From NCBI RefSeq assembly GCF_003790525.1, contig NZ_CP033635.1: 64,000 bases of DNA, one strand, 5' to 3'. This document shows positions 9,899 through 34,536 of the stretch, in pieces. The notes beneath the pieces are model-generated. The model had not been told where the DNA came from. It saw only the letters and a list, made by a program, of their open reading frames with translations, and searched no databases. A program made the position numbers and the translations under genes. How positions within the stretch are numbered: position 1 is the stretch's first letter; each line of letters opens with the position of its first letter. The DNA is from Escherichia coli (GTDB taxonomy: Bacteria; Pseudomonadota; Gammaproteobacteria; Enterobacterales; Enterobacteriaceae).

Positions 9899-10372
<474 letters not shown>

Positions 10373-10397
10373 TCACCCGATATGGTGGTTGATACAA

Positions 10398-10433
10398 CAT
10401 TATTGTGCATACAGATGAATTTTTATGCAAACA
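10398..10433 (-). promoter_or_regulatory. Putative ARG box operator(s) in the argR promoter (autoregulation)
   Basis: tgcatacagaTGAATttttATGCAaa resembles the ARG box consensus TGAAT-N4-ATTCA, immediately upstream of argR. Confidence 0.5.
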
Positions 10434-10728
10434 GTCAGCCCTGAAGAAGGCTGAAATAATGTTATGAAAGAGCGGGATTTTATCAAATTTCGTTATTGAG
10501 AAACATGCCTGCGTCACGGCATGCAAATTCTGCTTAAAAGTAAATTAATTGTTATCAAATTGATGTTGTTTTGGCTGAACGGTAGGGTATATTGTCACCA
10601 CCTGTTGGAATGTTGCGCTAATGCATAAGCGACTGTTAATTACGTAAGTTAGGTTCCTGATTACGGCAATTAAATGCATAAACGCTAAACTTGCGTGACT
10701 ACACATTCTTGAGATGTGGTCATTGTAA

Positions 10729-11742
<1,014 letters not shown>

Positions 11743-11804: not shown

Positions 11805-12872
11805 TTAATTGGTTGCCGGATATTCCTGAATGGTGACCTGCAGCGTTAACTGCTTATCATCACGCATCACTACAACCGGGATCACCGAGCCAGGGCGAAT
11901 TTCCGCCACCTGATCCATCGTCTCCAGAGCAGAGATGGCCGGTTTGTTATCCACCGAAATAATCAAATCATTGACCTGAATACCCGCATTCGCCGCCGGG
12001 CCGTCAGGTGACACTTCATTAACCACGATCCCTTGCAGTTGATCTATACCACCGCCCTGCGCGTGCAGTGGTGCGATCTCACGTCCGCCGATACCAATGT
12101 AGCCGCGGATCACGCGACCATCGCGGATCAGTTTATCCATAATTTTGGTTGCTAACTGGAAAGGAATCGCAAAGCCGATACCTTCCGGCGTTTCGCCATC
12201 GTTACTCTTATCAAACGACAGCGTGTTAATGCCCATCAGTTCGCCCAGCGAGTTCACCAGCGCGCCGCCAGAGTTACCGTGGTTAATGGAAGCATCGGTT
12301 TGCAGGAAGTTTTGCCGCCCGGTCGGGTTCAGACCGATTCGACCCGTGGCACTAATAATCCCCTGGGTAATGGTCTGCCCGAGGTTGTACGGGTTACCGA
12401 TCGCCAGTACCACGTCACCAATGTGCGGTACGCGACGTGCATTAATTGGAATGGTAGGTAAACCGCCAGTGGCATTAATTTTAAGTACCGCCAGATCGGT
12501 TAGAGAGTCAGATCCCACCAGCAATGCTTCAAATACACGTCCATCTTGTAAGGCGACGATGATCTGATCGGCGTCGTTGATGACGTGTTTATTGGTGATG
12601 ATATAACCGCGTTGATCCATGATTACACCGGATCCCAGGGTGCGGATCTCAAGCTGGTTGTGAGAGTTGGTGTTCAAACCACGGTTGTAAACGTTAACCA
12701 CCGCTGGCGCGGCGCGGCGAACCGCCAGATTATAGCTGGCAGGCGTCTCATCGGTACTGTCAAATTGCGGAGTGGAAAGCGGGTTAAGGCTGCGCAGCGA
12801 AGGCATGGCAACCAGCAGAATAGCGCCGACAATTAATCCAATCGCAACGGAACGTAAGAGCTTCACAAACAT
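11805..12872 (-). CDS. degS: Periplasmic serine endoprotease DegS (355 aa)
   Basis: Full ORF; trypsin-like protease plus PDZ domain; recognised as DegS. Confidence 0.95.
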   Translation of the reverse strand: MFVKLLRSVAIGLIVGAILLVAMPSLRSLNPLSTPQFDSTDETPASYNLAVRRAAPAVVNVYNRGLNTNSHNQLEIRTLGSGVIMDQRGYIITNKHVINDADQIIVALQDGRVFEALLVGSDSLTDLAVLKINATGGLPTIPINARRVPHIGDVVLAIGNPYNLGQTITQGIISATGRIGLNPTGRQNFLQTDASINHGNSGGALVNSLGELMGINTLSFDKSNDGETPEGIGFAIPFQLATKIMDKLIRDGRVIRGYIGIGGREIAPLHAQGGGIDQLQGIVVNEVSPDGPAANAGIQVNDLIISVDNKPAISALETMDQVAEIRPGSVIPVVVMRDDKQLTLQVTIQEYPATN

Positions 12873-12961
12873 GATGGAGGCATCGTTAAAAAAGGGAACG
12901 GCAGCAGCATACCACGAGTTAACCGGACATCACACGTCAGCCTGATGCCCGGTTTACGACA

Positions 12962-14329
12962 TTAACGCATCAGCAGATAGATGCTTTCATTGCCGCGTAC
13001 AATTTGCAGGGCGATGATGGCCGGTTTTGCCGCCAGCACTTTACGCATTTCAGCAATCGAGTTCACCCGATCGCGGTTGACGCCAATGATCACATCGTCT
13101 TTTTGCAAGCCAGCCTGAGCAGCTGGGCTTCCTTTGACAACCTCATCGATCTTAATACCTTTGCCGCCATCTTTTAGCTGACCATCGCTCAACGTTGCAC
13201 CTTCCAGCGCTGGCGTGATCATTTCAGCGCTGGCCGACGAAGAGGTGCTGGTATCAAGCGTCACTTCTACTTCCAGTGGTTTGCCGTTACGCAGCAGGCC
13301 AAGTTTCACTTTTGTGCCCGGCTCGGTGGTCGCGATACGAGAGCGCAACTCAGCAAAGCTATTCAGCGGTTTGCCGTTGAGGCTGGTAATAATATCGCCC
13401 GCTTTGATGCCCGCTTTTGCCGAGCCAGAACCTGGCAACACTTCGCTGACAAACGCGCCACGCTGCACGTCAAGGTTGAAGGCTTTGGCGATATCGGCAC
13501 TCATCTCTGTGCCTTTGATGCCTAACAGACCGCGTTTGATTTCACCGAAGTCGATAAGCTGCTGCGCCAGTGTTCGCGCCATATTACTGGGGATGGCAAA
13601 TCCAATCCCGACGCTCCCACCGCCAGGCGCAAGGATTGCAGTGTTGATGCCAATTAACTCACCGTTAAGGTTTAACAGTGCACCGCCGGAGTTACCGCGG
13701 TTAATGGAAGCATCTGTCTGGATAAAGTTTTCAAGACCTTCAAGATTCAACCCGCTGCGGCCTAATGCGGAAACAATGCCAGAGGTGGCGGTTTGCCCAA
13801 GGCCAAATGGGTTACCGACCGCCACGGCAAAATCACCGACGCGCAATTTATCGGAGTCGGCAATAGCGATTTGCGTTAATTTGCTCGGGTTTTGAATTTG
13901 CAACAGGGCGATATCGCTCTGGTCATCGCTACCAATCAGTTTTGCATCAAACTCGCGCCCATCATTGAGCTGAATACTGATTTTCTGTGCCTGATTAATC
14001 ACATGGTTGTTGGTCAGCACATAGCCTTTACTGGCGTTGATGATGACACCGGAGCCTAAACCTTCGAAGGGTTGTGCAGGTTGATCCGGTAAATCATCAC
14101 CAAAAAACTTTTTGAATTCTTCCGGGATTTTCTGTCCCTGACTGGCCGTTCCTTCCACCCGTACGCTCACCACTGCCGGAAGCACTTTTTCCAGCATTGG
14201 GGCCAGACTGGGGAGAGGGGCCTGATCGGCAACCTGGCCTGGAATCGACGCAACGGCCTGAAATGACGCCGAGAGAGTTAACCCGACACTTAACGCTAAT
14301 GCACTCAACAGCTGGGTTTGTTTTTTCAT
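12962..14329 (-). CDS. degQ: Periplasmic serine endoprotease DegQ (455 aa)
   Basis: Internal Met (MKKQTQLLSALALS... signal peptide) of track ORF 12962..14371; recognised as DegQ. Confidence 0.94.
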   Translation of the reverse strand: MKKQTQLLSALALSVGLTLSASFQAVASIPGQVADQAPLPSLAPMLEKVLPAVVSVRVEGTASQGQKIPEEFKKFFGDDLPDQPAQPFEGLGSGVIINASKGYVLTNNHVINQAQKISIQLNDGREFDAKLIGSDDQSDIALLQIQNPSKLTQIAIADSDKLRVGDFAVAVGNPFGLGQTATSGIVSALGRSGLNLEGLENFIQTDASINRGNSGGALLNLNGELIGINTAILAPGGGSVGIGFAIPSNMARTLAQQLIDFGEIKRGLLGIKGTEMSADIAKAFNLDVQRGAFVSEVLPGSGSAKAGIKAGDIITSLNGKPLNSFAELRSRIATTEPGTKVKLGLLRNGKPLEVEVTLDTSTSSSASAEMITPALEGATLSDGQLKDGGKGIKIDEVVKGSPAAQAGLQKDDVIIGVNRDRVNSIAEMRKVLAAKPAIIALQIVRGNESIYLLMR

Positions 14330-26058: not shown

Positions 26059-26204
26059 ACGTATTCGCTCAGGCAGGGGGCGCTGGTTGGGAACTCAACG
26101 TTGGCATGGTTTCGCTGCTCTTGTGTAGATGTGTTGCAGTTATTTGCGACATTCCGCCGGAGTAGCGGAACTATGGAAAACGGCAATTGGCGCTCTTATC
26201 CCTT

Positions 26205-26236
26205 AGCTTTGTAAGGCTTAATTTTGGTAGAATGGG
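26205..26236 (+). promoter_or_regulatory. Candidate sigma70 promoter with extended -10 (TGgTAGAAT) for the AT-rich two-gene module
   Basis: TGGTAGAAT at 26225-26233 seen directly; the -35 is weak (TTGTAA or TTAGCT with non-ideal spacing). Confidence 0.35.
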
Positions 26237-26264
26237 GAATCGTTTAACGGAAAAAAACAATCAG

Positions 26265-26759
26265 ATGATTTCTTTTCTATCCGATGAATTTGAGGAATTT
26301 CCGCAGGGAGATTTTTTAAATCATCTCTATAGGTTTTCGGTAGACCATCATCATTTTATCGTGATATTTAGCCCTATTGATATTAGCGATGCGGAGTACC
26401 ATCAATACCGTAGCGAGGAAGTTGGATTTGAAATCCCAACTAATTGTTTTGATGTGAAATTTGATAGGCAAGAAAACTTTGATAGTGGTAACTTTTACAT
26501 GCCCCCCGCCGCAACTGAATGCTCGAGGCGCAGACGCTTTACTGATGAACTCGCAGAGGCGCTAGCAACGATTATTGAAAAGCATTACATCATTTATCAT
26601 GCCAGGGCTTATCTTGCCATCGCAGAGAATGACAAGTTGAAACGTTACTATGACCGGATTTTACACAATGCCCCGGCTAATGTAGCATATAGAGTAATCA
26701 AAGATGTTGGAGAGGAGGAACGAGGTTATGCCATACAAACCGAATGTTTCCGAACTTAA
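26265..26759 (+). CDS. Hypothetical acidic protein (~164 aa from ATG 26265; alternative starts 26232 or 26187), no recognised domain
   Basis: Single long ORF in an AT-rich (~40% GC by eye) segment; MISFLSDEFEEFPQGDFLNHLYRF...; no motif I recognise; start ambiguous, weak RBS. Confidence 0.6.
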   Translation: MISFLSDEFEEFPQGDFLNHLYRFSVDHHHFIVIFSPIDISDAEYHQYRSEEVGFEIPTNCFDVKFDRQENFDSGNFYMPPAATECSRRRRFTDELAEALATIIEKHYIIYHARAYLAIAENDKLKRYYDRILHNAPANVAYRVIKDVGEEERGYAIQTECFRT

Positions 26760-26874
26760 GAAAATGACTGTTGCAGAGCGCAAGAAAGAAGCCATGCGCC
26801 AGCTTAAAGCATCCTTTGAGCGCGCCAGCATTGAAGGGACTTTGCATAAACGCTCTGCAAAGTCTGTTGCGTAA
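26728..26874 (+). CDS. Hypothetical small basic protein (48 aa), overlaps the 3' end of the preceding ORF by 32 nt in another frame
   Basis: Strong RBS GAGGAGG 7-13 nt upstream of ATG 26728; MPYKPNVSELKKMTVAERKKEAMRQLKASFERASIEGTLHKRSAKSVA; below the ORF-track length cutoff, found by reading. Confidence 0.5.
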   Translation: MPYKPNVSELKKMTVAERKKEAMRQLKASFERASIEGTLHKRSAKSVA

Positions 26875-26888
26875 TGAAAGATTTCAAT

Positions 26889-26914
26889 AACCCGCTGCGG
26901 CGGGCCTTTTTTTG
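26889..26914. terminator. Rho-independent terminator 15 nt after the small ORF (possibly bidirectional, facing the convergent VWA gene)
   Basis: cccgctgcggcgggcctttttttg: GC stem plus T7 run. Confidence 0.75.
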
Positions 26915-27095
26915 CCCTCAGAAAATCCCCTCTGACCTGCCTCAGGGATTATATACAACCTTCAGTTAATTAGCTGCGCACCATACGCGGCCCGAGCCTT
27001 ATCGCCTTGTTCAAATTCGACAATTCGTCGGCCAATTTCCCCGAACGTCGCGGTGCTAAGTACCGTATCCGTCCGGGCGTATCCGGCCAGAATTT

Positions 27096-28265
27096 TCAGG
27101 CGGTTTCTCTTGCTGTCACTACGCCATTTTGCGCAGCCCACAGATTCACATCTTCCTTACGAATGGCGGCGGCCATCATGCCGGGGAATAAATCTGGGGT
27201 ACAGGCAAAGGAGGGAATACCCATGGCGGCGAGTTTTCCTGCCAGTGACCGGTCGTAAAACGGCGCACCTTCATCGCTTAAGGCCAGCAGGGTAACCACC
27301 TGTACGCCGGACTGAATCAACTCACTGGCGCGTTGCAACAGATTGCGTTCCACCCCGCCTTCGTAGAGGTCGGAAATCAGCACCAGAATGGTATTGCGCG
27401 GATCGCGAATCAAAGACTGGCAGTAGCCCACCGCGCGGTTGATGTCGGTGCCGCCACCCAGCTGTACGCCAAACAGCAGCTCTACCGGATCGTCGAGCTT
27501 CTCTGTCATATCAACGACTGCGGTGTCGAAAACCACCAGATGCGTTTTTACCGCCGGGAGCGATGCCATTACTGCGCCAAAAATACTGGAATAGACCACC
27601 GAGGAGGCCATCGACCCACTCTGGTCGATACATAAAATGATCTCCTTTTGCGTGCGTTGAGACTTGCGCCCGTAGCCGATCAGCGTTTCAGGAACAATAC
27701 TTTTATACTCTTCCTGCCAGTGGCGCAGGTTGGCGCGAATGGTGCGCTGCCAGTCAATTTCCGCGTGGCGCGGGCGACGATTACGTACCGCACGATTAAG
27801 AGCGCCGCTTACCGCGCTACGCATTGGCTCTTCAAGCTGTTTCATCAATTGCTCGACAACTTTACGCACCACAAGCCTGGCGGTTTCTTTGGTTTTGGCC
27901 GGAATTACGCCATTCAGCGACATCAGCGTGGAGACCAGATGAACATCAGGCTGGACGTTTGCCAGCATCTCCGGCTCCAGCAACATACTGTGCAAATTAA
28001 GACGTTCAAAGGCGTCTTTTTGCATCACCTGAACCACAGAAGAAGGGAAATACTGGCGAATATCACCCAGCCAGCGAGCGACTTTGGGTGACGATCCACC
28101 CGTGCCGCCGCGTAATCCATGTTTACCCTCTGGCTGATACAGCGCCGCCAGCGCGGCATCAATCGCGGACTCTCTGGCATCCAGCGCCACGTTACAGGCA
28201 TTGTCGGCATCTTCTCCAAGGATCAGACGCCAGCGGCGCAGCCGTTCCATTTCGTTACTCGACAT
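27096..28265 (-). CDS. von Willebrand factor A (VWA) domain protein with complete MIDAS motif (389 aa); fifth gene of novel operon
   Basis: DQSGSM (DxSxS), GGGTD and LISDLYEGG motifs seen in the translation; start overlaps the upstream gene's stop by 11 nt. Confidence 0.85.
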   Translation of the reverse strand: MSSNEMERLRRWRLILGEDADNACNVALDARESAIDAALAALYQPEGKHGLRGGTGGSSPKVARWLGDIRQYFPSSVVQVMQKDAFERLNLHSMLLEPEMLANVQPDVHLVSTLMSLNGVIPAKTKETARLVVRKVVEQLMKQLEEPMRSAVSGALNRAVRNRRPRHAEIDWQRTIRANLRHWQEEYKSIVPETLIGYGRKSQRTQKEIILCIDQSGSMASSVVYSSIFGAVMASLPAVKTHLVVFDTAVVDMTEKLDDPVELLFGVQLGGGTDINRAVGYCQSLIRDPRNTILVLISDLYEGGVERNLLQRASELIQSGVQVVTLLALSDEGAPFYDRSLAGKLAAMGIPSFACTPDLFPGMMAAAIRKEDVNLWAAQNGVVTARETA

Positions 28266-30504
28266 GATTTTCCCTTTCGTGTGGTGGCAAAGCCAGAATG
28301 CGGCGCAGTAGCGGCAGCATTAACGCGGCACGCTGTTCATCCCATATACCGCTGGTCTCTTCTTGCTGCGCGACACGCTCGCCCTGCGCGGCGCGTTCGC
28401 CTAACTGGCGGCGTTCCGGGCTGGAAAAACGGCCGAATGTCCGCCGCAGCATCGGCAGGATCCGGGTGAAGTGATTGTCGTTCAGGCCGCTTAGCCAGGC
28501 ATCGATCAACTGCCATAATTCGCTATTGTGCAGTAGCACCATCGCGCTGTCGTTGAGGAAACCTTCCGCCCATGCGGCACTTTCCGCCGGGGGATTGGCT
28601 GGCGATAGCGCCAGGTTCATCAGCGTGCTGATCCGTTCTGTCGTTAACGTTTGCAGATCAAACAACAGGCGCGTCGCCGTTCCGCGAAGCAGCGCGTGTG
28701 CGGTACTGCCCTCTGCCAGCACCATCAACGCCTGCAACCAGCCCGCCAATAGATCTTCGTTATCCAGCAACCGCAGCGCGGCGTGGGCGTCGATAACTTT
28801 TTCTCTCATACTGGCGGCGCTGTCGTCGTTGAGCGCCGAACAGGCTCCGGGTAGGGCGATGGCGGCGCGCGGGGCGAGGCTCATCAGTACCTGCATTACC
28901 ATACCAGAGTCGGTCTGGCGCACGTTGCCGTAGCGGACAATCGCCACCAGTGGTGCCAGGGCTTCCAGCAACTGTTCGATATTGCCCTGAGTGGCAGCCA
29001 GTGATTCCAGTGTATTGGCGATGGGGGCAATCGCGGTCTGTAAATCGGCCAGTAGCACCTGTTGGATAAGCTTTGCCAGTTCCGGCAGCGTGCTGGCGTA
29101 TTGCGCCCTCACAATGGCATAGCGGGAGCTGGCCTGCTCAATGCTGTTACCCCAACGGCTGGCGGTAATGATGTTGATTGCCAGTGCCGGTTCCCAGCGC
29201 AGCGACCAGACTTCGTGGAACGTCCCTTTGCTGTTATTTCCTTGTCCAGCCAGACGGCCCCAGGAAATGTCGAGTAAGGTCAGGCGATGCAGTAAATGGC
29301 TACGCGCCAGATCGCCGGGTTTGCGCAGATCAAGATCCAGCACTTTTTCGCTGGCTTCTGCCTTCAGGCGCAGCGTTTTTTGCTGTTGCGTAATGTCGCG
29401 TTGGAGCGGCACGACGGGCGTATCATCCGGTACGCTTCCCAGCGCGTCGCCGACAATTAACTTCTGGCGAATCATCTGCATTGGCGCGCTTTCGCCCATA
29501 CACACTACGGTTTGCAGCGCTTCGCAAAGTTCGTCAAGCCCCGGCTGCGGGTGATGGCGCATAATCGCCAGCGTCTGCGCCAGCCGCGCCGCTTCGATAA
29601 TGTGGGCGCTGGAACAGTCGAGATCGGCTTCGCGAAACAGCCTTGCCGCGCGTGACAGCCAGCCGATATCGCGGTGAGAAGCGCCCTGATAACGCCACAG
29701 ATGATCGTACCATTCCGGTGACACCACCCCTGCGCCATAACCGCTGGCGCGGCTTAACGCCTCGTAGCTCCAGGGCGTCCAGGCTGCCGCGACCTTGCAC
29801 TTCGGCAAATTTTTCAGCAGTTCGTTATCATTCTTTGCGGGCGGCAGGTTTTCCAGCGCCGGAACGTGCCACGCACCGCAGACTACCGCGATGCGCGAGA
29901 AGCCCTCTTTTTTCGCCTGACGTAGCGTCTTGCGCATATACGCTTCACGCAGTTGATCTCTGGCTGAGTTTCGGGCTTCGGGAGTTGCCTGGCGTAGGGC
30001 AATCATCGCCTCGCGAATCGCCTCGAACAGAGACAAATCATCTTCGCGTTCCTCTACTCTGTGGCTCCACCAGCTTTCCCCATCGGTGTAACCGGCGGCG
30101 CGGCCCAGCCAGTCCAGCGGATCGCCGTCGGGACTGGCTTCAACGGCATCATCGTCATCGCTCTCTTTTTCGTCATCAAGCGCGAACTGATGACTGATGG
30201 GCAAGTCCATAAAGCGCACGGCGATATTTTGCTCAAAACCATAGCGCAGCGCCTGCCATTCCGGGGAGAACGCCGCAAAGGGGTAAAACGCGGCGTGATG
30301 TGAGTCGTCCGGGGCATAAATCAGTAGCGCGACCGGCGGTTGCATCTGTTCATGCTGCATAAAAGGCAGGATGGATTCGCCGTCGGGCGGCCCTTCCACC
30401 AGCAGGCAGTCGGGCTGTAGCGTCTCCAGCGCCTTTCGCAGGCTGCGCGCGCAGCCAGGGCCATGGTGACGGATGCCAAACAAATGAACGGTTTGTTCAG
30501 TCAT
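28255..30504 (-). CDS. Large hypothetical protein (749 aa), no motif recognised; fourth gene of novel operon
   Basis: Uninterrupted 2.25-kb ORF; AAGG RBS in the 17-nt gap after the AAA+ gene; acidic stretch DDEKESDDDDAVEASPDGD; helical Leu/Ala-rich C-terminal half. Confidence 0.8.
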   Translation of the reverse strand: MTEQTVHLFGIRHHGPGCARSLRKALETLQPDCLLVEGPPDGESILPFMQHEQMQPPVALLIYAPDDSHHAAFYPFAAFSPEWQALRYGFEQNIAVRFMDLPISHQFALDDEKESDDDDAVEASPDGDPLDWLGRAAGYTDGESWWSHRVEEREDDLSLFEAIREAMIALRQATPEARNSARDQLREAYMRKTLRQAKKEGFSRIAVVCGAWHVPALENLPPAKNDNELLKNLPKCKVAAAWTPWSYEALSRASGYGAGVVSPEWYDHLWRYQGASHRDIGWLSRAARLFREADLDCSSAHIIEAARLAQTLAIMRHHPQPGLDELCEALQTVVCMGESAPMQMIRQKLIVGDALGSVPDDTPVVPLQRDITQQQKTLRLKAEASEKVLDLDLRKPGDLARSHLLHRLTLLDISWGRLAGQGNNSKGTFHEVWSLRWEPALAINIITASRWGNSIEQASSRYAIVRAQYASTLPELAKLIQQVLLADLQTAIAPIANTLESLAATQGNIEQLLEALAPLVAIVRYGNVRQTDSGMVMQVLMSLAPRAAIALPGACSALNDDSAASMREKVIDAHAALRLLDNEDLLAGWLQALMVLAEGSTAHALLRGTATRLLFDLQTLTTERISTLMNLALSPANPPAESAAWAEGFLNDSAMVLLHNSELWQLIDAWLSGLNDNHFTRILPMLRRTFGRFSSPERRQLGERAAQGERVAQQEETSGIWDEQRAALMLPLLRRILALPPHERENHVE

Positions 30505-30521
30505 AGTGGTTGCCTTGCTGA

Positions 30522-31616
30522 TTACACAATTTCGCGGCAGGCGCGATAGAGATCGTTCCAGTCGCTGCGCTCTTTGACTATAGTTTCCAGATATTCACGC
30601 CATACCACGTCGTCCTGCACGGGATCTTTTACCACCGCGCCGATAAGGCTTGCGGCGATATCCCGCGGATGTAGCACGCCGTCGCCAAAATGGCCCGCCA
30701 GCGCCATACCGTTGTTGATAACGGAGATCGCCTCCGCGGTGCTGAGAGTACTGGTTGGCGACTTAATTTTCGTTTTGCCGTCAACCGTCAGGCCGTTTCG
30801 CAGTTCGCGGAAGATTTGCACGACTCGCTGGATCTCTTTAAGCGCTGGCGGTTCGGCAGGAAGTGCCAGCGCCTGACCCAGTTCGGCGACGCGGCGAGTG
30901 ACAATGTTAATCTCTTCTTCTTCGCTGGCGGGTACGGGCAAAATGACCGTGTTGAAACGACGTTTAAGTGCGGAAGAAAGCTCGTTAACGCCTTTATCCC
31001 GGTTGTTGGCGGTGGCGATAACGTTAAAGCCGCGCGTCGCCTGGACCTCTTCATTCAGTTCGGGGATAGGCAGCGTTTTTTCCGACAGGATCGTGATCAG
31101 CGTGTCCTGAACATCGGCAGGAATACGCGTCAGCTCTTCTACGCGGGCAATCTGCCCGCGTGCCATCGCCCGCATCAATGGGCTTTCTACCAGCGCCGAA
31201 CGTGACGGACCTTTAGAGAGCAACTCCGCGTAGTTCCAGCCATAACGCATTTGTTCTTCACCGGTGCCTGCGGTGCCCTGAATAATTAACGTTGAGTCGC
31301 CGCTGATGGCAGCCGCCAGATGTTCAGAGACCCAGGATTTCGCAGTGCCGGGTACGCCATACAACAGCAGTGCGCGATCGGTTGCCAGCGTGGCAACGGC
31401 GGTTTCGATAATCCGCCTGTTGCCGATATATTTCGGCGTGACCTCAAAACCATTTTCCAGTTGCCCGCCTAACAGATAAGTAGCAACGGACCACGGAGAA
31501 ATAGCCCAGTTTTCCGGGCGCGGATGAGTATCGTTTTTTTGCAGCTCATCCAGTTCTTCTGCAAATTGTTGTTCGGCATGTCGGCGTAAAACGGCGGCAG
31601 TAGCGGTGGAAGTCAT
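30522..31616 (-). CDS. MoxR-like AAA+ ATPase (364 aa from ATG 31616); third gene of novel operon
   Basis: Walker A LLLYGVPGTAKS (GxPGxAKS, MoxR-type), Walker B-like IARVEELTRIPADVQ, sensor-1 NVIATANN, Arg finger LKRRF; ATG overlaps the upstream stop as ATGA. Confidence 0.85.
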   Translation of the reverse strand: MTSTATAAVLRRHAEQQFAEELDELQKNDTHPRPENWAISPWSVATYLLGGQLENGFEVTPKYIGNRRIIETAVATLATDRALLLYGVPGTAKSWVSEHLAAAISGDSTLIIQGTAGTGEEQMRYGWNYAELLSKGPSRSALVESPLMRAMARGQIARVEELTRIPADVQDTLITILSEKTLPIPELNEEVQATRGFNVIATANNRDKGVNELSSALKRRFNTVILPVPASEEEEINIVTRRVAELGQALALPAEPPALKEIQRVVQIFRELRNGLTVDGKTKIKSPTSTLSTAEAISVINNGMALAGHFGDGVLHPRDIAASLIGAVVKDPVQDDVVWREYLETIVKERSDWNDLYRACREIV

Positions 31617-33217
31617 AAAGTAGTTTCTCCGACAAAAAACGAATGAAGTTGAATTCGGTGCGCCAGCGTGGCGCTCAGGGCAGTAAAGGCTGCCTCGCAA
31701 TAAGGCGTTTGTTGTGCGTCATGCGGCCACTTGTCAATGACATCATTGAGGACTTCGGGGGCCAGCAGGCAGGCGAAATCACTCATCACATGGCGCAGGG
31801 CGTAGTCAAAGCGCGCGGAATCATGTTTCACCCAACGGTGCAGCTCCGTGACCATTTGCTGGCTCAGGCGCAGGCTAAAGAGCGACGCATCCAGCGGTAA
31901 CAGGGCGATGTAGCGTTGTAAATGTTCGCCGCCCATTACCGAGAACAGTAACGTCAACACTGGCTCGTGTTCTTCTACGGGCAGGCATTGCAGAAGCTCA
32001 AAGGCGTTAATCTTCACGCCAGCAGGGGAATGAATGCTTATTCCGACGGGGAGTAGGGCGAGGAATGCCTGCGCCCACTGTGGATTTTTTTCGCGCAGGA
32101 CGGCGTGATACCAGGCGCGCAGTAGCGCCTCCTGCCAGTCGGTTTTCCCGGCCCAGCGCAGCAGTTCAACGGGGGTAGCCTGCAGTTGCGTTTGCCACCA
32201 GTCGAGCGGAACCGCTGCAACTATCTGATACAGCCACCATGCGCGCTGGCCCAACTTTTCGCCTTTGGGCTTAGTTTCTTCCAGCGCATCGGCCTTCCAC
32301 TCTGGTAAGAACGCCTCCGGGGCATCAAGGGCGACGCGCAGCATTTTTTCTTTGCCGGATAAGCCTTTTAGCCTTTCAAGTAAGGTCTCAGGAGCGGGGG
32401 ATGAACTGAGCAACGGCGCTAACCGAGACTTCATGCGCGAGATCCAGGCGCTTTCCGGCAGACAACACAGTAACCGTGCCGCAGTTTGCCGCACCTCTTT
32501 GCTGCGATCGGATAATGTCTGTTCCAGAAAGGCTTCGTCGTGTTGGGAGATCCCCACTTCCAGCACAGCCAGCAGCTGTGCGCGTTCGCGGGCATCCAGC
32601 GAACTCATCTCCTGCGCCAGCCGATCGCGACCCTGTTCCGGGGCGCGAATGCGCATTTGCGTCAGATATTGCAGACGCTGTTCGGACGTGCCGTGCAGCC
32701 ACATTTCTTCATCCAGCGGAGCGTCAGTGGAGGCGAGAACATAGCCCCAATCGGCGTTGATTTGCGCCAGCCAGCACCCGCGAGCGCCCAGAACATTGGA
32801 CAGGATGCCGCGTAGAGATGGCTTTTGCGCTCCATAATTCAGCAATGCTGGTAACAGCAGGGGCGGAGGAAGAAGTTGACGACGGACCAATAGATCAAGC
32901 GCCGACCACAGCAACCGCGGCGGTCCTTCTGACAGCAGCAGATGCAGCAGTCCCGCAAAAGCCGGGTTGTTTATTGGCTCGGCATTTTCTTTATCGATTT
33001 CCGGCAGCGGTGCGGGGTCAATCGCCTGCGGCACCCAGCCAGCCAGATGGCAGAGCGCCAGAACGCCCGCCGAGCGCAGTAGCTGTTGCTCTGCGGATGT
33101 GTTATTCGCCAGTTCAGACAGTAACAGCCCAATCTCACTTTGCGACGCCGACGGTGTAAACGCTTTTTTGTCTGTGCCGAGTAGCGCTGTGCGGGTTAAA
33201 TTTTGCCATTCGTTCAT
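31613..33217 (-). CDS. Hypothetical alpha-helical Leu-rich protein (534 aa from ATG 33217; 541 aa if 33238); second gene of novel operon
   Basis: Long ORF; ATG at 33217 forms an ATGA overlap with the SWIM gene stop; Leu/Ala/Trp-rich repeat-like sequence; no catalytic motif recognised. Confidence 0.8.
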   Translation of the reverse strand: MNEWQNLTRTALLGTDKKAFTPSASQSEIGLLLSELANNTSAEQQLLRSAGVLALCHLAGWVPQAIDPAPLPEIDKENAEPINNPAFAGLLHLLLSEGPPRLLWSALDLLVRRQLLPPPLLLPALLNYGAQKPSLRGILSNVLGARGCWLAQINADWGYVLASTDAPLDEEMWLHGTSEQRLQYLTQMRIRAPEQGRDRLAQEMSSLDARERAQLLAVLEVGISQHDEAFLEQTLSDRSKEVRQTAARLLCCLPESAWISRMKSRLAPLLSSSPAPETLLERLKGLSGKEKMLRVALDAPEAFLPEWKADALEETKPKGEKLGQRAWWLYQIVAAVPLDWWQTQLQATPVELLRWAGKTDWQEALLRAWYHAVLREKNPQWAQAFLALLPVGISIHSPAGVKINAFELLQCLPVEEHEPVLTLLFSVMGGEHLQRYIALLPLDASLFSLRLSQQMVTELHRWVKHDSARFDYALRHVMSDFACLLAPEVLNDVIDKWPHDAQQTPYCEAAFTALSATLAHRIQLHSFFVGETTL

Positions 33218-34536
33218 TGTGCGCCTCCGGTTGCCCAAATGACGCTACCGGCAAGCCAGGCGCTACAGGGCGTCAGCTGCTGACCATCCCATTCCCCCAT
33301 TAGCATAAACGGCGCGCCGCCGCTGGCCGCCAGTAACCGCCAACCCTCGTCCGACGACAGGTGCGTCGGTAAGTGCTGGCCCTGTGTCGAGACGAATCGC
33401 CAGCCGCTCTCGTGCGGGTAAATCAATATTTCGCTTACTCGCAGCGGCAGAGGCCATTGCCAGGGATTCGCGCTAAGCCGCTGCGCCATGTCATGCAGCG
33501 CGTCCGGGAGGGGTAATTCTGCAAGCGGGAATCTTTCACCGCGGGTAAACGGCTCCACAACCCGCGCCCGTAGCGGTGATGCGCCAGGGAAAAAGGCAAG
33601 CGCGCCCTGGCAGACTTGCCCGGTGATAAAGTGCTGGGGAAAGTTTTTACTACCGTGTGAATAGTCCAGCAGTAGCGCGGTGCGGTGGCTCTTTTCTCCG
33701 TACAGCCAGACCCGGCGTCGCCACAGATTATTCCCTTCTTGCGCGCTTTGACCTAAGACCTGCCAGTTATCGAGGCAGGTTAATCCGTCAGTGACGTCGT
33801 GTTTATCCGGGGGTATTCCCAATGCCGCATGGAGATCGCTAAGTTGTGCCGGGGATAACATTTGTTGCTGGCGCCAGGCGTCAATAATCAGCTGTAGCTG
33901 CCCCAGTTCTTTGCACAGGCTCGATGGCCATACCTCGGCGGTAGTAAAATGAGTGGTCAGATTGTTCAGGCGAGCGGCAATTCCCGGTAGTTGGGCGTCG
34001 ACCATGCGGGCGGCGATCCCGGCAAAAGGCAACTGTTGTGCAGAGATCTGCGCCAGACCGTGGCGGATCAGGTCGTGCATCCACTGTTCGAGGAAATCCA
34101 GCCCCGCCGTCATTTTTTGGTTGCGTGCCGCTTCCCGTTTGGCGGCAGCCTGCGGGTCGGCAGCTTTTGCCTCAGCCTGCTCTTTCTTCTCTTCTTTGCG
34201 AACCGCCCGCTGCTGGCGCGAGGTTAGCCACTCGCTTACCCATTCCGGCGGCTCGCCAGCGGTGAAACTTGCGGTGTGTTGCACCTGGAGAAAAAGCAAC
34301 GCAAGGCTATGTTTACAGGGGAATTTACGGCTGGGGCAGGAACATTTACAGGCCAGATCCTGTCTGTCGATTCGTACCTGATAAGGGCGGGAGCCGCTAC
34401 CTTTACACTCTCCCCAGAAGGCAGCCTCGCTATATCCGAGCGTCGGCCATTTTGCGGGAGCAACCAGGCCACGAGCCGCTTTAACCGAGGCGTCATCGGG
34501 CGCCAGGGCTTGCACTGATTCAACGGTCAGTTCCAT
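33214..34536 (-). CDS. SWIM zinc-finger domain protein (440 aa); first gene of novel operon
   Basis: CxCxnCxH signature at residues 63-76 (ACKCSCPSRKFPCKHSLALLF); first ORF downstream of gltD on the same strand. Confidence 0.85.
   Translation of the reverse strand: MELTVESVQALAPDDASVKAARGLVAPAKWPTLGYSEAAFWGECKGSGSRPYQVRIDRQDLACKCSCPSRKFPCKHSLALLFLQVQHTASFTAGEPPEWVSEWLTSRQQRAVRKEEKKEQAEAKAADPQAAAKREAARNQKMTAGLDFLEQWMHDLIRHGLAQISAQQLPFAGIAARMVDAQLPGIAARLNNLTTHFTTAEVWPSSLCKELGQLQLIIDAWRQQQMLSPAQLSDLHAALGIPPDKHDVTDGLTCLDNWQVLGQSAQEGNNLWRRRVWLYGEKSHRTALLLDYSHGSKNFPQHFITGQVCQGALAFFPGASPLRARVVEPFTRGERFPLAELPLPDALHDMAQRLSANPWQWPLPLRVSEILIYPHESGWRFVSTQGQHLPTHLSSDEGWRLLAASGGAPFMLMGEWDGQQLTPCSAWLAGSVIWATGGAQ

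Follow-up and report, generated by a model that had tools for sequence, protein, structure and literature searches.

A five-gene ATPase operon

We examined a 64,000-nucleotide stretch of Escherichia coli DNA (assembly GCF_003790525.1, contig NZ_CP033635.1; hereafter, the window) with a focus on a gene for a von Willebrand A (VWA) protein, the last gene of a five-gene ATPase operon. The window sequence matches the E. coli SMS-3-5 chromosome (NC_010498.1) at 100% identity. [quoted passage not shown] Both statements were borne out, with the addition that the gene lies on the minus strand. A 389-codon open reading frame (ORF) fills exactly this interval, its boundaries are identical to those of RefSeq WP_000097506.1 (‘VWA domain-containing protein’), and motifs and Pfam match agree (Table 1).

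The operon encodes, from 5′ to 3′, a SWIM zinc-finger protein, a DUF5691 protein, an AAA_5/MoxR ATPase, a DUF5682 protein and the VWA protein. All five genes are co-directional, with junctions of −4, −4, +17 and −11 nt (negative values denote overlap). The ATPase gene is not adjacent to the VWA gene: it lies two genes upstream, with the DUF5682 gene in between. Translation of the VWA gene starts at an ATG (28265–28263), 5 nt behind a Shine-Dalgarno-like AAGGGA motif (28276–28271), and the DUF5682 ORF stops with TAA at 28257–28255, an 11-nt overlap on which the RefSeq boundaries agree. An alternative in-frame ATG at 28250 would sit only 4 nt past this stop, so the two genes are tightly coupled whichever start is used. 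Orthologous loci and K-12 yehM/yehP likewise show an overlap here, of 4–16 nt. The VWA and DUF5682 genes are predicted to be co-transcribed; a promoter and terminator scan of the operon yielded nothing above shuffled expectation.

VWA domain and N-terminal region

The Pfam model VWA_CoxE (PF05762) covers residues 149–359 of the VWA protein (E = 3.6e-52) and VWA_2 covers residues 209–299 (E = 1.4e-6). The canonical DxSxS...T...D motif is complete, consisting of D214 (GAC, 27626–27624), S216 (AGT, 27620–27618), S218 (TCG, 27614–27612), T273 (ACC, 27449–27447) and D299 (GAC, 27371–27369). These five residues are invariant among 114 orthologues of at least 77% identity, and in a 77-sequence alignment spanning 33–85% identity T273 is invariant and D214, S216, S218 and D299 are each at least 90% conserved. 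Because of these E-values and the conservation of the MIDAS, the match is not a chance one. An AlphaFold2 (AF2) model built from the 77-sequence alignment is confident, with a mean predicted local distance difference test score (pLDDT) of 91.2 and a predicted template modelling score (pTM) of 0.85, and assignment of secondary structure by DSSP shows the classical alternating β/α core of a VWA domain at residues 207–370. Profile search and structure prediction thus both support the fold, and the gene product is a genuine von Willebrand A protein whose predicted metal-binding adhesion site is complete. A phmmer search of its sequence against PDB sequences gave no meaningful match; by structure, its closest kinship is with the Rea1 MIDAS domain and NorD, the latter within the top three matches.

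Table 1 Features of the VWA gene and its operon, in window coordinates
Feature	Position	Strand	Evidence
VWA protein gene, 389 aa, YehP-like	27096..28265	minus	ORF; RefSeq WP_000097506.1; VWA_CoxE match; YehP identity; AF2 model
N-terminal all-helical region, residues 1–157, near-invariant RWRLILG at residues 11–17	27795..28265	minus	DSSP of AF2 model
Pre-VWA segment, residues 158–206, inside Pfam VWA_CoxE model	27648..27794	minus	Pfam; AF2
VWA α/β core, residues 207–370	27156..27647	minus	AF2 model
MIDAS motif 1 DQSGS, residues 214–218 (D214, S216, S218)	27612..27626	minus	Sequence and alignments
MIDAS threonine T273 in GGGTD (residues 270–274)	27447..27449	minus	Invariant in 77 sequences
MIDAS aspartate D299 in SDLYEGG (residues 298–304)	27369..27371	minus	Sequence and alignments
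DUF5682-stop/VWA-start overlap, 11 nt, translational-coupling arrangement	28255..28265	minus	Sequence and RefSeq boundaries
DUF5682 protein, 749 aa, YehM paralogue	28255..30504	minus	Pfam DUF5682, E 2.4e-268
AAA+ ATPase, 364 aa, YehL subfamily of MoxR	30522..31616	minus	Pfam AAA_5, E 1.6e-38; YehL identity
DUF5691 protein, 534 aa, helical, fastest-evolving component	31613..33217	minus	Pfam DUF5691, E 1.2e-122; RefSeq
SWIM zinc-finger protein, 440 aa, first operon gene	33214..34536	minus	Pfam SWIM (residues 59–81), E 2.4e-6; RefSeq

The first-pass annotation had also described some 200 N-terminal residues without a recognisable motif and suggested that they could form the substrate-recognition or effector part of the protein. 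The description stands for residues 1–148, for which no Pfam or PDB sequence match was found, and falls for residues 149–208, which are part of VWA_CoxE; a profile of residues 1–160 from 30 sequences likewise found no homologue among PDB sequences or in Pfam. The suggested role found no support. The region is all-helical and is found throughout the family, with most of the best 150 of 2,525 relatives (from a search of 1.84 billion representatives) aligning over the whole length. It is also conserved nearly as well as the VWA core (fraction identical 0.81–0.83 for residues 61–208 versus 0.86), with near-invariant hydrophobic or aromatic residues (W12, L14, L16, Y43, W65 and F73) and G17. Such conservation is too high for a variable recognition module and suits a fixed part, for docking or structure, of a conserved machine; for specificity, SWIM and DUF5691, which evolve fast, make better candidates.

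Partner proteins

MoxR ATPases had been named in the first-pass annotation as the usual partners of such a domain, and this partnership is supported by operon membership (Pfam AAA_5; 41% identity to YehL). The ATPase carries a Walker A motif (GVPGTAKS, 87–94), a variant Walker B motif (EELTR, 160–164), ATAN (201) and ALKRRF (216). The Walker B motif has EE in place of the usual DE, a variant shared with K-12 YehL (EEITR) and Niveibacterium. Its top PDB sequence matches by phmmer are the AAA modules of Midasin (1e-15) and NorQ (5.5e-6), and its Pfam bpMoxR match is weak (E = 2.9e-4). When all five proteins were scanned against NCBIfam and PADLOC, only the ATPase had matches, and these were weak. 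A CxCx(n)CxH motif is seen in the translation of the SWIM protein, and the DUF5691 protein has a weak Pfam HEAT match.

The DUF5682 protein, for which phmmer found no meaningful match among PDB sequences, is modelled by AF2 (pLDDT 84.8) as an α/β domain (residues ~1–270) followed by a long helical repeat region, an α-solenoid. Across 25 sequences of 22–77% identity, YehM and fusions included, ten residues are invariant (R12, H13, H14, E37, D100, E151, R186, E187, G210 and H213). The spacings H13/14–E37 and R186–H213 resemble H3902–E3930 and R4001–H4030 of RRSP, whose site comprises H3902, E3930, R4001 and H4030 with a catalytic 2His/2Glu set; in the TIKI/TraB/ChaN/erythromycin-esterase superfamily, a catalytic His-Glu pair is accompanied by a conserved basic residue nearby (PMC6254334). 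We regard the N-terminal domain as a candidate TIKI/TraB-like hydrolase, an assignment that is reasonable but unproven.

Natural fusions connect the DUF5682 and VWA proteins. Two proteins, P0237 (1,342 aa) and P0246 (1,227 aa), carry DUF5682 at the N terminus and a complete YehP-like protein at the C terminus, with the helical N-terminal region of the latter placed directly after DUF5682. Given these fusions and the conserved start/stop overlap, we argue for direct contact between DUF5682 and the VWA protein. SWIM and DUF5691 are fused as well, in ORFs of ~930 aa in Paractinoplanes (loci L053 and L087) and in a 1,009-aa gene in Hymenobacter (L007), and the two types of fusion together suggest two physical sub-complexes.

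Relation to yehLMPQ of K-12

The ATPase, DUF5682 and VWA proteins are paralogous to YehL, YehM and YehP of E. coli K-12. The VWA protein is 38% identical to YehP over residues 9–365 (E = 4e-80), homology that takes in the N-terminal helices, and YehP reaches 300 bits, along its entire length, with a hidden Markov model (HMM) of cassette VWA proteins (HMMs of cassette proteins were built from eight loci). DUF5682 is 27% identical to YehM. Both systems share the DUF5682-stop/VWA-start overlap and include a SWIM-containing protein; they differ in organization, because the K-12 order is L-M-P-Q, with SWIM last, whereas SWIM and DUF5691 come first in the cassette. Beyond the zinc finger, the cassette SWIM protein shares nothing with YehQ, and DUF5691 is without a K-12 counterpart. 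YehQ and YehI, considered as counterparts of SWIM and DUF5691, were rejected by BLASTP and HMM, and the SWIM and DUF5691 HMMs matched none of YehQ, YehI, YehF and yehH. Since SWIM and DUF5691 lack yeh counterparts, the window holds a second, differently organized YehL/M/P module, and its VWA protein belongs to the YehP family in an arrangement distinct from K-12 yehLMPQ.

One of the seven MoxR subfamilies has YehL as its type member, and in K-12 YehL is the second MoxR ATPase, RavA being the other (PMC3893208). The function of YehP had not been described, and altered swarming had been reported for a knockout; K-12 yehP also contains, at codon 291 and just past the MIDAS threonine, a site of +1 ribosomal frameshifting that gives a 303-aa product (PMC2790909). 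That product of K-12 yehP (11968–13104 of locus L002) would lack the last MIDAS aspartate. The 16-nt frameshift cassette is absent from the window, even with up to three mismatches allowed.

Distribution and conservation

The cassette is patchily distributed in E. coli, occurring in 33 of 5,426 complete genomes, whereas yehLMPQ is near-core (5,209 of 5,426). It is flanked by gltD and a 123-bp yhcG remnant, in a place occupied in K-12 by gltF-yhcA..G, and its neighbours in the window are gltBD and nan genes. Its G+C content (27096–34536, 57.7%) exceeds that of the whole window (52.4%), consistent with foreign origin.

The yhcG remnant (~26968–27090), derived from a DUF1016/PDDEXK nuclease gene, abuts the VWA gene. 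An inserted island at ~26060–27095 apparently holds a hypothetical ORF of 190 aa (26187–26759, plus strand) and another of 48 aa, and only 28 E. coli genomes contain its DNA at a coverage of at least 80%, approximately the set that carries the cassette. On a Hymenobacter plasmid (L007), an intact PDDEXK nuclease gene (10168–11220) lies directly downstream of the VWA gene, in convergent orientation. The presence of PDDEXK genes beside the cassette in both Hymenobacter and E. coli may be coincidence or reflect an insertion-site preference.

Outside E. coli, the same five-gene order was found with unrelated flanks in Thiobaca, Niveibacterium and Superficieibacter, and on large non-mobilizable plasmids in Deinococcus, Methylosinus, Rhizobium and Hymenobacter. 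Scanning a single genome from each GTDB species with a 17-sequence VWA alignment identified at least 547 loci. The best 80 of these, with 58–79% identity to the window VWA protein, belong to Pseudomonadota, Verrucomicrobiota, Cyanobacteria, Acidobacteriota, Chloroflexota, Bacteroidota, Actinomycetota, Deinococcota, Planctomycetota, Armatimonadota and Desulfobacterota; the cassette is conserved over at least ten bacterial phyla. All five genes are present in 53 of the 59 species-representative loci that could be tested, namely those with at least 7.5 kb of upstream sequence. Variants include SWIM::DUF5691 fusions, one circular permutation and, in Streptomyces, a SWIM-DUF5691 pair that is transcribed divergently. 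The flanks of the 80 loci show no recurring sixth gene family, and the cassette is therefore considered self-contained. The VWA protein is 75–79% identical to homologues in Verrucomicrobia and Cyanobacteria, but 61% identical to that of Rhizobium; because identity does not track taxonomy, horizontal transfer is indicated.

The five components differ in their rates of change. Median identity to the window proteins is 75% for the ATPase, 65% for VWA, 47% for DUF5682, 38% for SWIM and 31% for DUF5691, and this rank order holds in all 45 of 45 complete loci. Across phyla, the ATPase and VWA proteins retain 59–82% identity. By this measure, motor and putative adaptor are strongly constrained, and the SWIM and DUF5691 accessory proteins evolve faster.

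Additional genes accompany the cassette at some loci. In Thiobaca trueperi (L003, 6379–7518), the ATPase and DUF5682 genes are separated by two small ORFs and a gene for a BrnA-type antitoxin, and a small extra ORF occupies the same place in Deinococcus and Hymenobacter. In Superficieibacter electus (L006, 1–2684), a DUF2201_N/DUF2201 gene (VWA-like, putative metallopeptidase) stands directly upstream of the cassette, followed by a gene for a HEAT/LRV repeat protein; these two may be part of a second MoxR-VWA-type system.

This distribution bears on whether the cassette could be a conflict system, directed against phages or plasmids, with SWIM and DUF5691 as sensors, the MoxR-VWA couple as threshold or switch and DUF5682 as a TIKI/TraB-like proteolytic effector. 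Such a role would be compatible with the adaptor mechanism proposed below, because it concerns the biological role. In its favour are the patchy spread of the cassette in E. coli, in place of gltF-yhcA..G, the mismatch between identity and taxonomy, the recombinase, insertion sequence or toxin-antitoxin genes near some loci and the roughly twofold faster evolution of the two putative sensors relative to the motor. Horizontally acquired genes are often silenced by H-NS/StpA, and a study of the H-NS regulon found K-12 yehL and yehM to be among the silenced genes. Kaur and colleagues reportedly proposed in 2020 that MoxR-vWA couples act as thresholding modules in conflict systems. The ternary conflict systems of this kind resemble the cassette in placing a MoxR-vWA couple within a larger, patchily distributed multi-gene cassette, and the weak bpMoxR match of the ATPase is a further likeness. 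They differ in that the components studied here are highly conserved rather than diversifying: ATPase and VWA proteins that keep such identity across phyla are unlike the proteins of an arms race. No VMAP-type or hypervariable effector component was seen in the cassette, although no VMAP profile search was made. In PADLOC-DB v2, the VWA, DUF5682, DUF5691 and SWIM proteins had no match and the ATPase had marginal IetA matches (E = 1.4e-3), and the flanks of the 80 loci contain no recurrent defence gene family. The near-core status of the paralogous yehLMPQ would be unusual for a defence system. The family is also essentially absent from phages, and 36 of 49 plasmid matches are on non-mobilizable replicons. 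Phage carriage of the cassette was considered and rejected: of the only two ‘phage’ matches, one is a faecal contig without annotation and the other is chromosomal DNA, from yehP, at the end of a prophage record. On balance, we consider a conflict role improbable.

Proposed mechanism

We propose that the VWA protein is the client-gripping VWA/MIDAS adaptor of a five-protein, ATP-driven remodelling machine of the YehL/YehM/YehP type, a reading drawn by analogy to which we assign a probability of roughly 0.6. As in NorQ/NorD, CbbQ/CbbO and Rea1, the VWA domain would dock on or in the pore of an ATPase hexamer, an acidic side chain from a client would complete the coordination of a divalent cation bound at the MIDAS, and ATP hydrolysis would then pull or twist that client. 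Less securely, DUF5682, made alongside the VWA protein, could supply an α-solenoid scaffold, and its TraB/TIKI-like domain, with the His-Glu-Arg set, may hydrolyse a peptide or ester bond of the client; the faster-evolving SWIM and DUF5691 proteins might set specificity or regulation.

The closest structural comparisons are with NorD and Midasin. NorD and NorQ are a VWA protein and an AAA_5 MoxR ATPase that serve as an iron-insertion chaperone of nitric oxide reductase. A finger of NorD enters the NorQ pore, the VWA domain lies in the concave opening of the hexamer, and ATP hydrolysis by NorQ twists and stretches the adaptor (PMC9976466; PMC13036017). In the cassette VWA protein, residues 158–206 are modelled as a short segment with a small hairpin, which may, by analogy, correspond to this pore-binding finger. 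Midasin (Rea1, MDN1) has AAA modules that match the cassette ATPase and a MIDAS domain structurally close to the VWA protein. It differs in being a single chain of ~5,000 residues in which six AAA modules are fused, and in working on pre-60S ribosomes, whereas the cassette encodes separate bacterial proteins, for which no client of UBL type was identified. The Midasin VWA domain is only 14–15% identical in sequence to that of the cassette. RavA-ViaA and CbbQ-CbbO likewise pair a hexameric MoxR ATPase with a C-terminal VWA/MIDAS protein in one operon. They are two-gene systems of other MoxR subfamilies, their VWA partners have unrelated N-terminal domains, and their clients are known (fumarate reductase/Nuo and Rubisco, respectively).

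Several observations weigh against the adaptor reading. In four of the 59 testable loci (L055, L057, L058 and L077), the VWA gene, with ~60% identity to that of the window, stands alone, its partners being absent within 10 kb. The level of ATPase activity is uncertain because the Walker B motif has EE instead of DE, and a NorD-like finger was not demonstrated in the AF2 model of the VWA protein. A Foldseek search of the PDB with the full-length DUF5682 model gave nothing at E < 0.05 and a profile of DUF5682 residues 1–275 had no TraB/TIKI match among PDB sequences, which keeps the hydrolase assignment hypothetical. In the literature, we found no paper that mentions DUF5682 or DUF5691 and no functional study of the family, and YehL/M/P/Q appeared only in lists, one frameshifting study and one H-NS regulon study. 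A further literature search combining MoxR, vWA and SWIM also found no functional study.

One alternative is that the MIDAS grips a partner within the cassette and no outside client. It would then bind an acidic residue of DUF5682, SWIM or DUF5691, the VWA protein would be a latch or assembly factor, and release by the ATPase would switch the complex on. The MIDAS domain of Rea1 docks back on its own AAA ring, a precedent for such a latch; the VWA protein and DUF5682 are coupled in translation and at times form one fused chain, and the high conservation of the VWA protein would fit co-evolution with fixed internal partners. In NorD, however, mutations of the MIDAS spare binding to the NorQ ATPase and abolish activation of the target (PMC9976466; PMC13036017), and no specific conserved acidic partner residue was identified in the cassette proteins. 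The present data fit a latch as well as a client; we give the latch a low probability.

A second alternative retains a client and changes its nature. Characterized MoxR-VWA pairs are mostly maturation factors, and the cassette might encode a metal- or cofactor-insertion chaperone, like CoxE/CoxD, NorD/NorQ or CbbO/CbbQ, for an enzyme encoded elsewhere in the genome. The best Pfam family of the VWA protein is ‘VWA domain containing CoxE-like protein’, NorD ranks in the top three structural matches and NorQ is among the PDB matches of the ATPase. The likeness to CoxE extends to the ~60-residue pre-VWA segment of the shared Pfam model and to a MoxR-class ATPase partner. The cassette differs in having other accessory genes and no cox structural genes nearby, and the gene context, with gltBD and nan neighbours and no recurrent enzyme gene in the 80 loci, led us to reject a true CoxE. 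More generally, no client enzyme is linked to the cassette, since flanks vary by locus and no family recurs in them; SWIM, DUF5691 and DUF5682 are without counterpart in CoxDE, NorQD and CbbQO; and no NCBIfam equivalog model matched. A chaperone of this type is accordingly a poor candidate beside the client-gripping adaptor.

A bolder extension of the adaptor mechanism would treat the cassette and yehLMPQ as an undescribed class of machine, in which a split, Midasin-like AAA_5/MIDAS motor is combined with a TIKI/TraB-type hydrolase. The motor would extract a client through its MIDAS–acidic grip and the hydrolase would cleave it, either in an immune or conflict system or in a quality-control device acting on a conserved complex. 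We hold this to be speculative and rather unlikely.

Significance

The VWA/MIDAS call is in itself routine, as RefSeq already names a VWA domain protein; it is the setting that matters. The YehL subfamily is one of seven MoxR subfamilies, is one for which we found no assigned function in the literature, and is carried by K-12 as four ‘y-genes’. Our analysis places its YehL/YehM/YehP core in a self-contained cassette that has spread horizontally over at least ten phyla with an unusually conserved motor and adaptor. Handles for experiment include the five MIDAS residues, the candidate hydrolase site of DUF5682 (H13/H14, E37, R186 and H213), the fusions that predict DUF5682–VWA contact and two fast-evolving subunits that may confer specificity. 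Should both the hydrolase and the adaptor proposals be correct, the family would represent a new way to couple a MoxR motor to an enzymatic step. The cassette is a well-defined ‘known unknown’ that deserves experimental attention.

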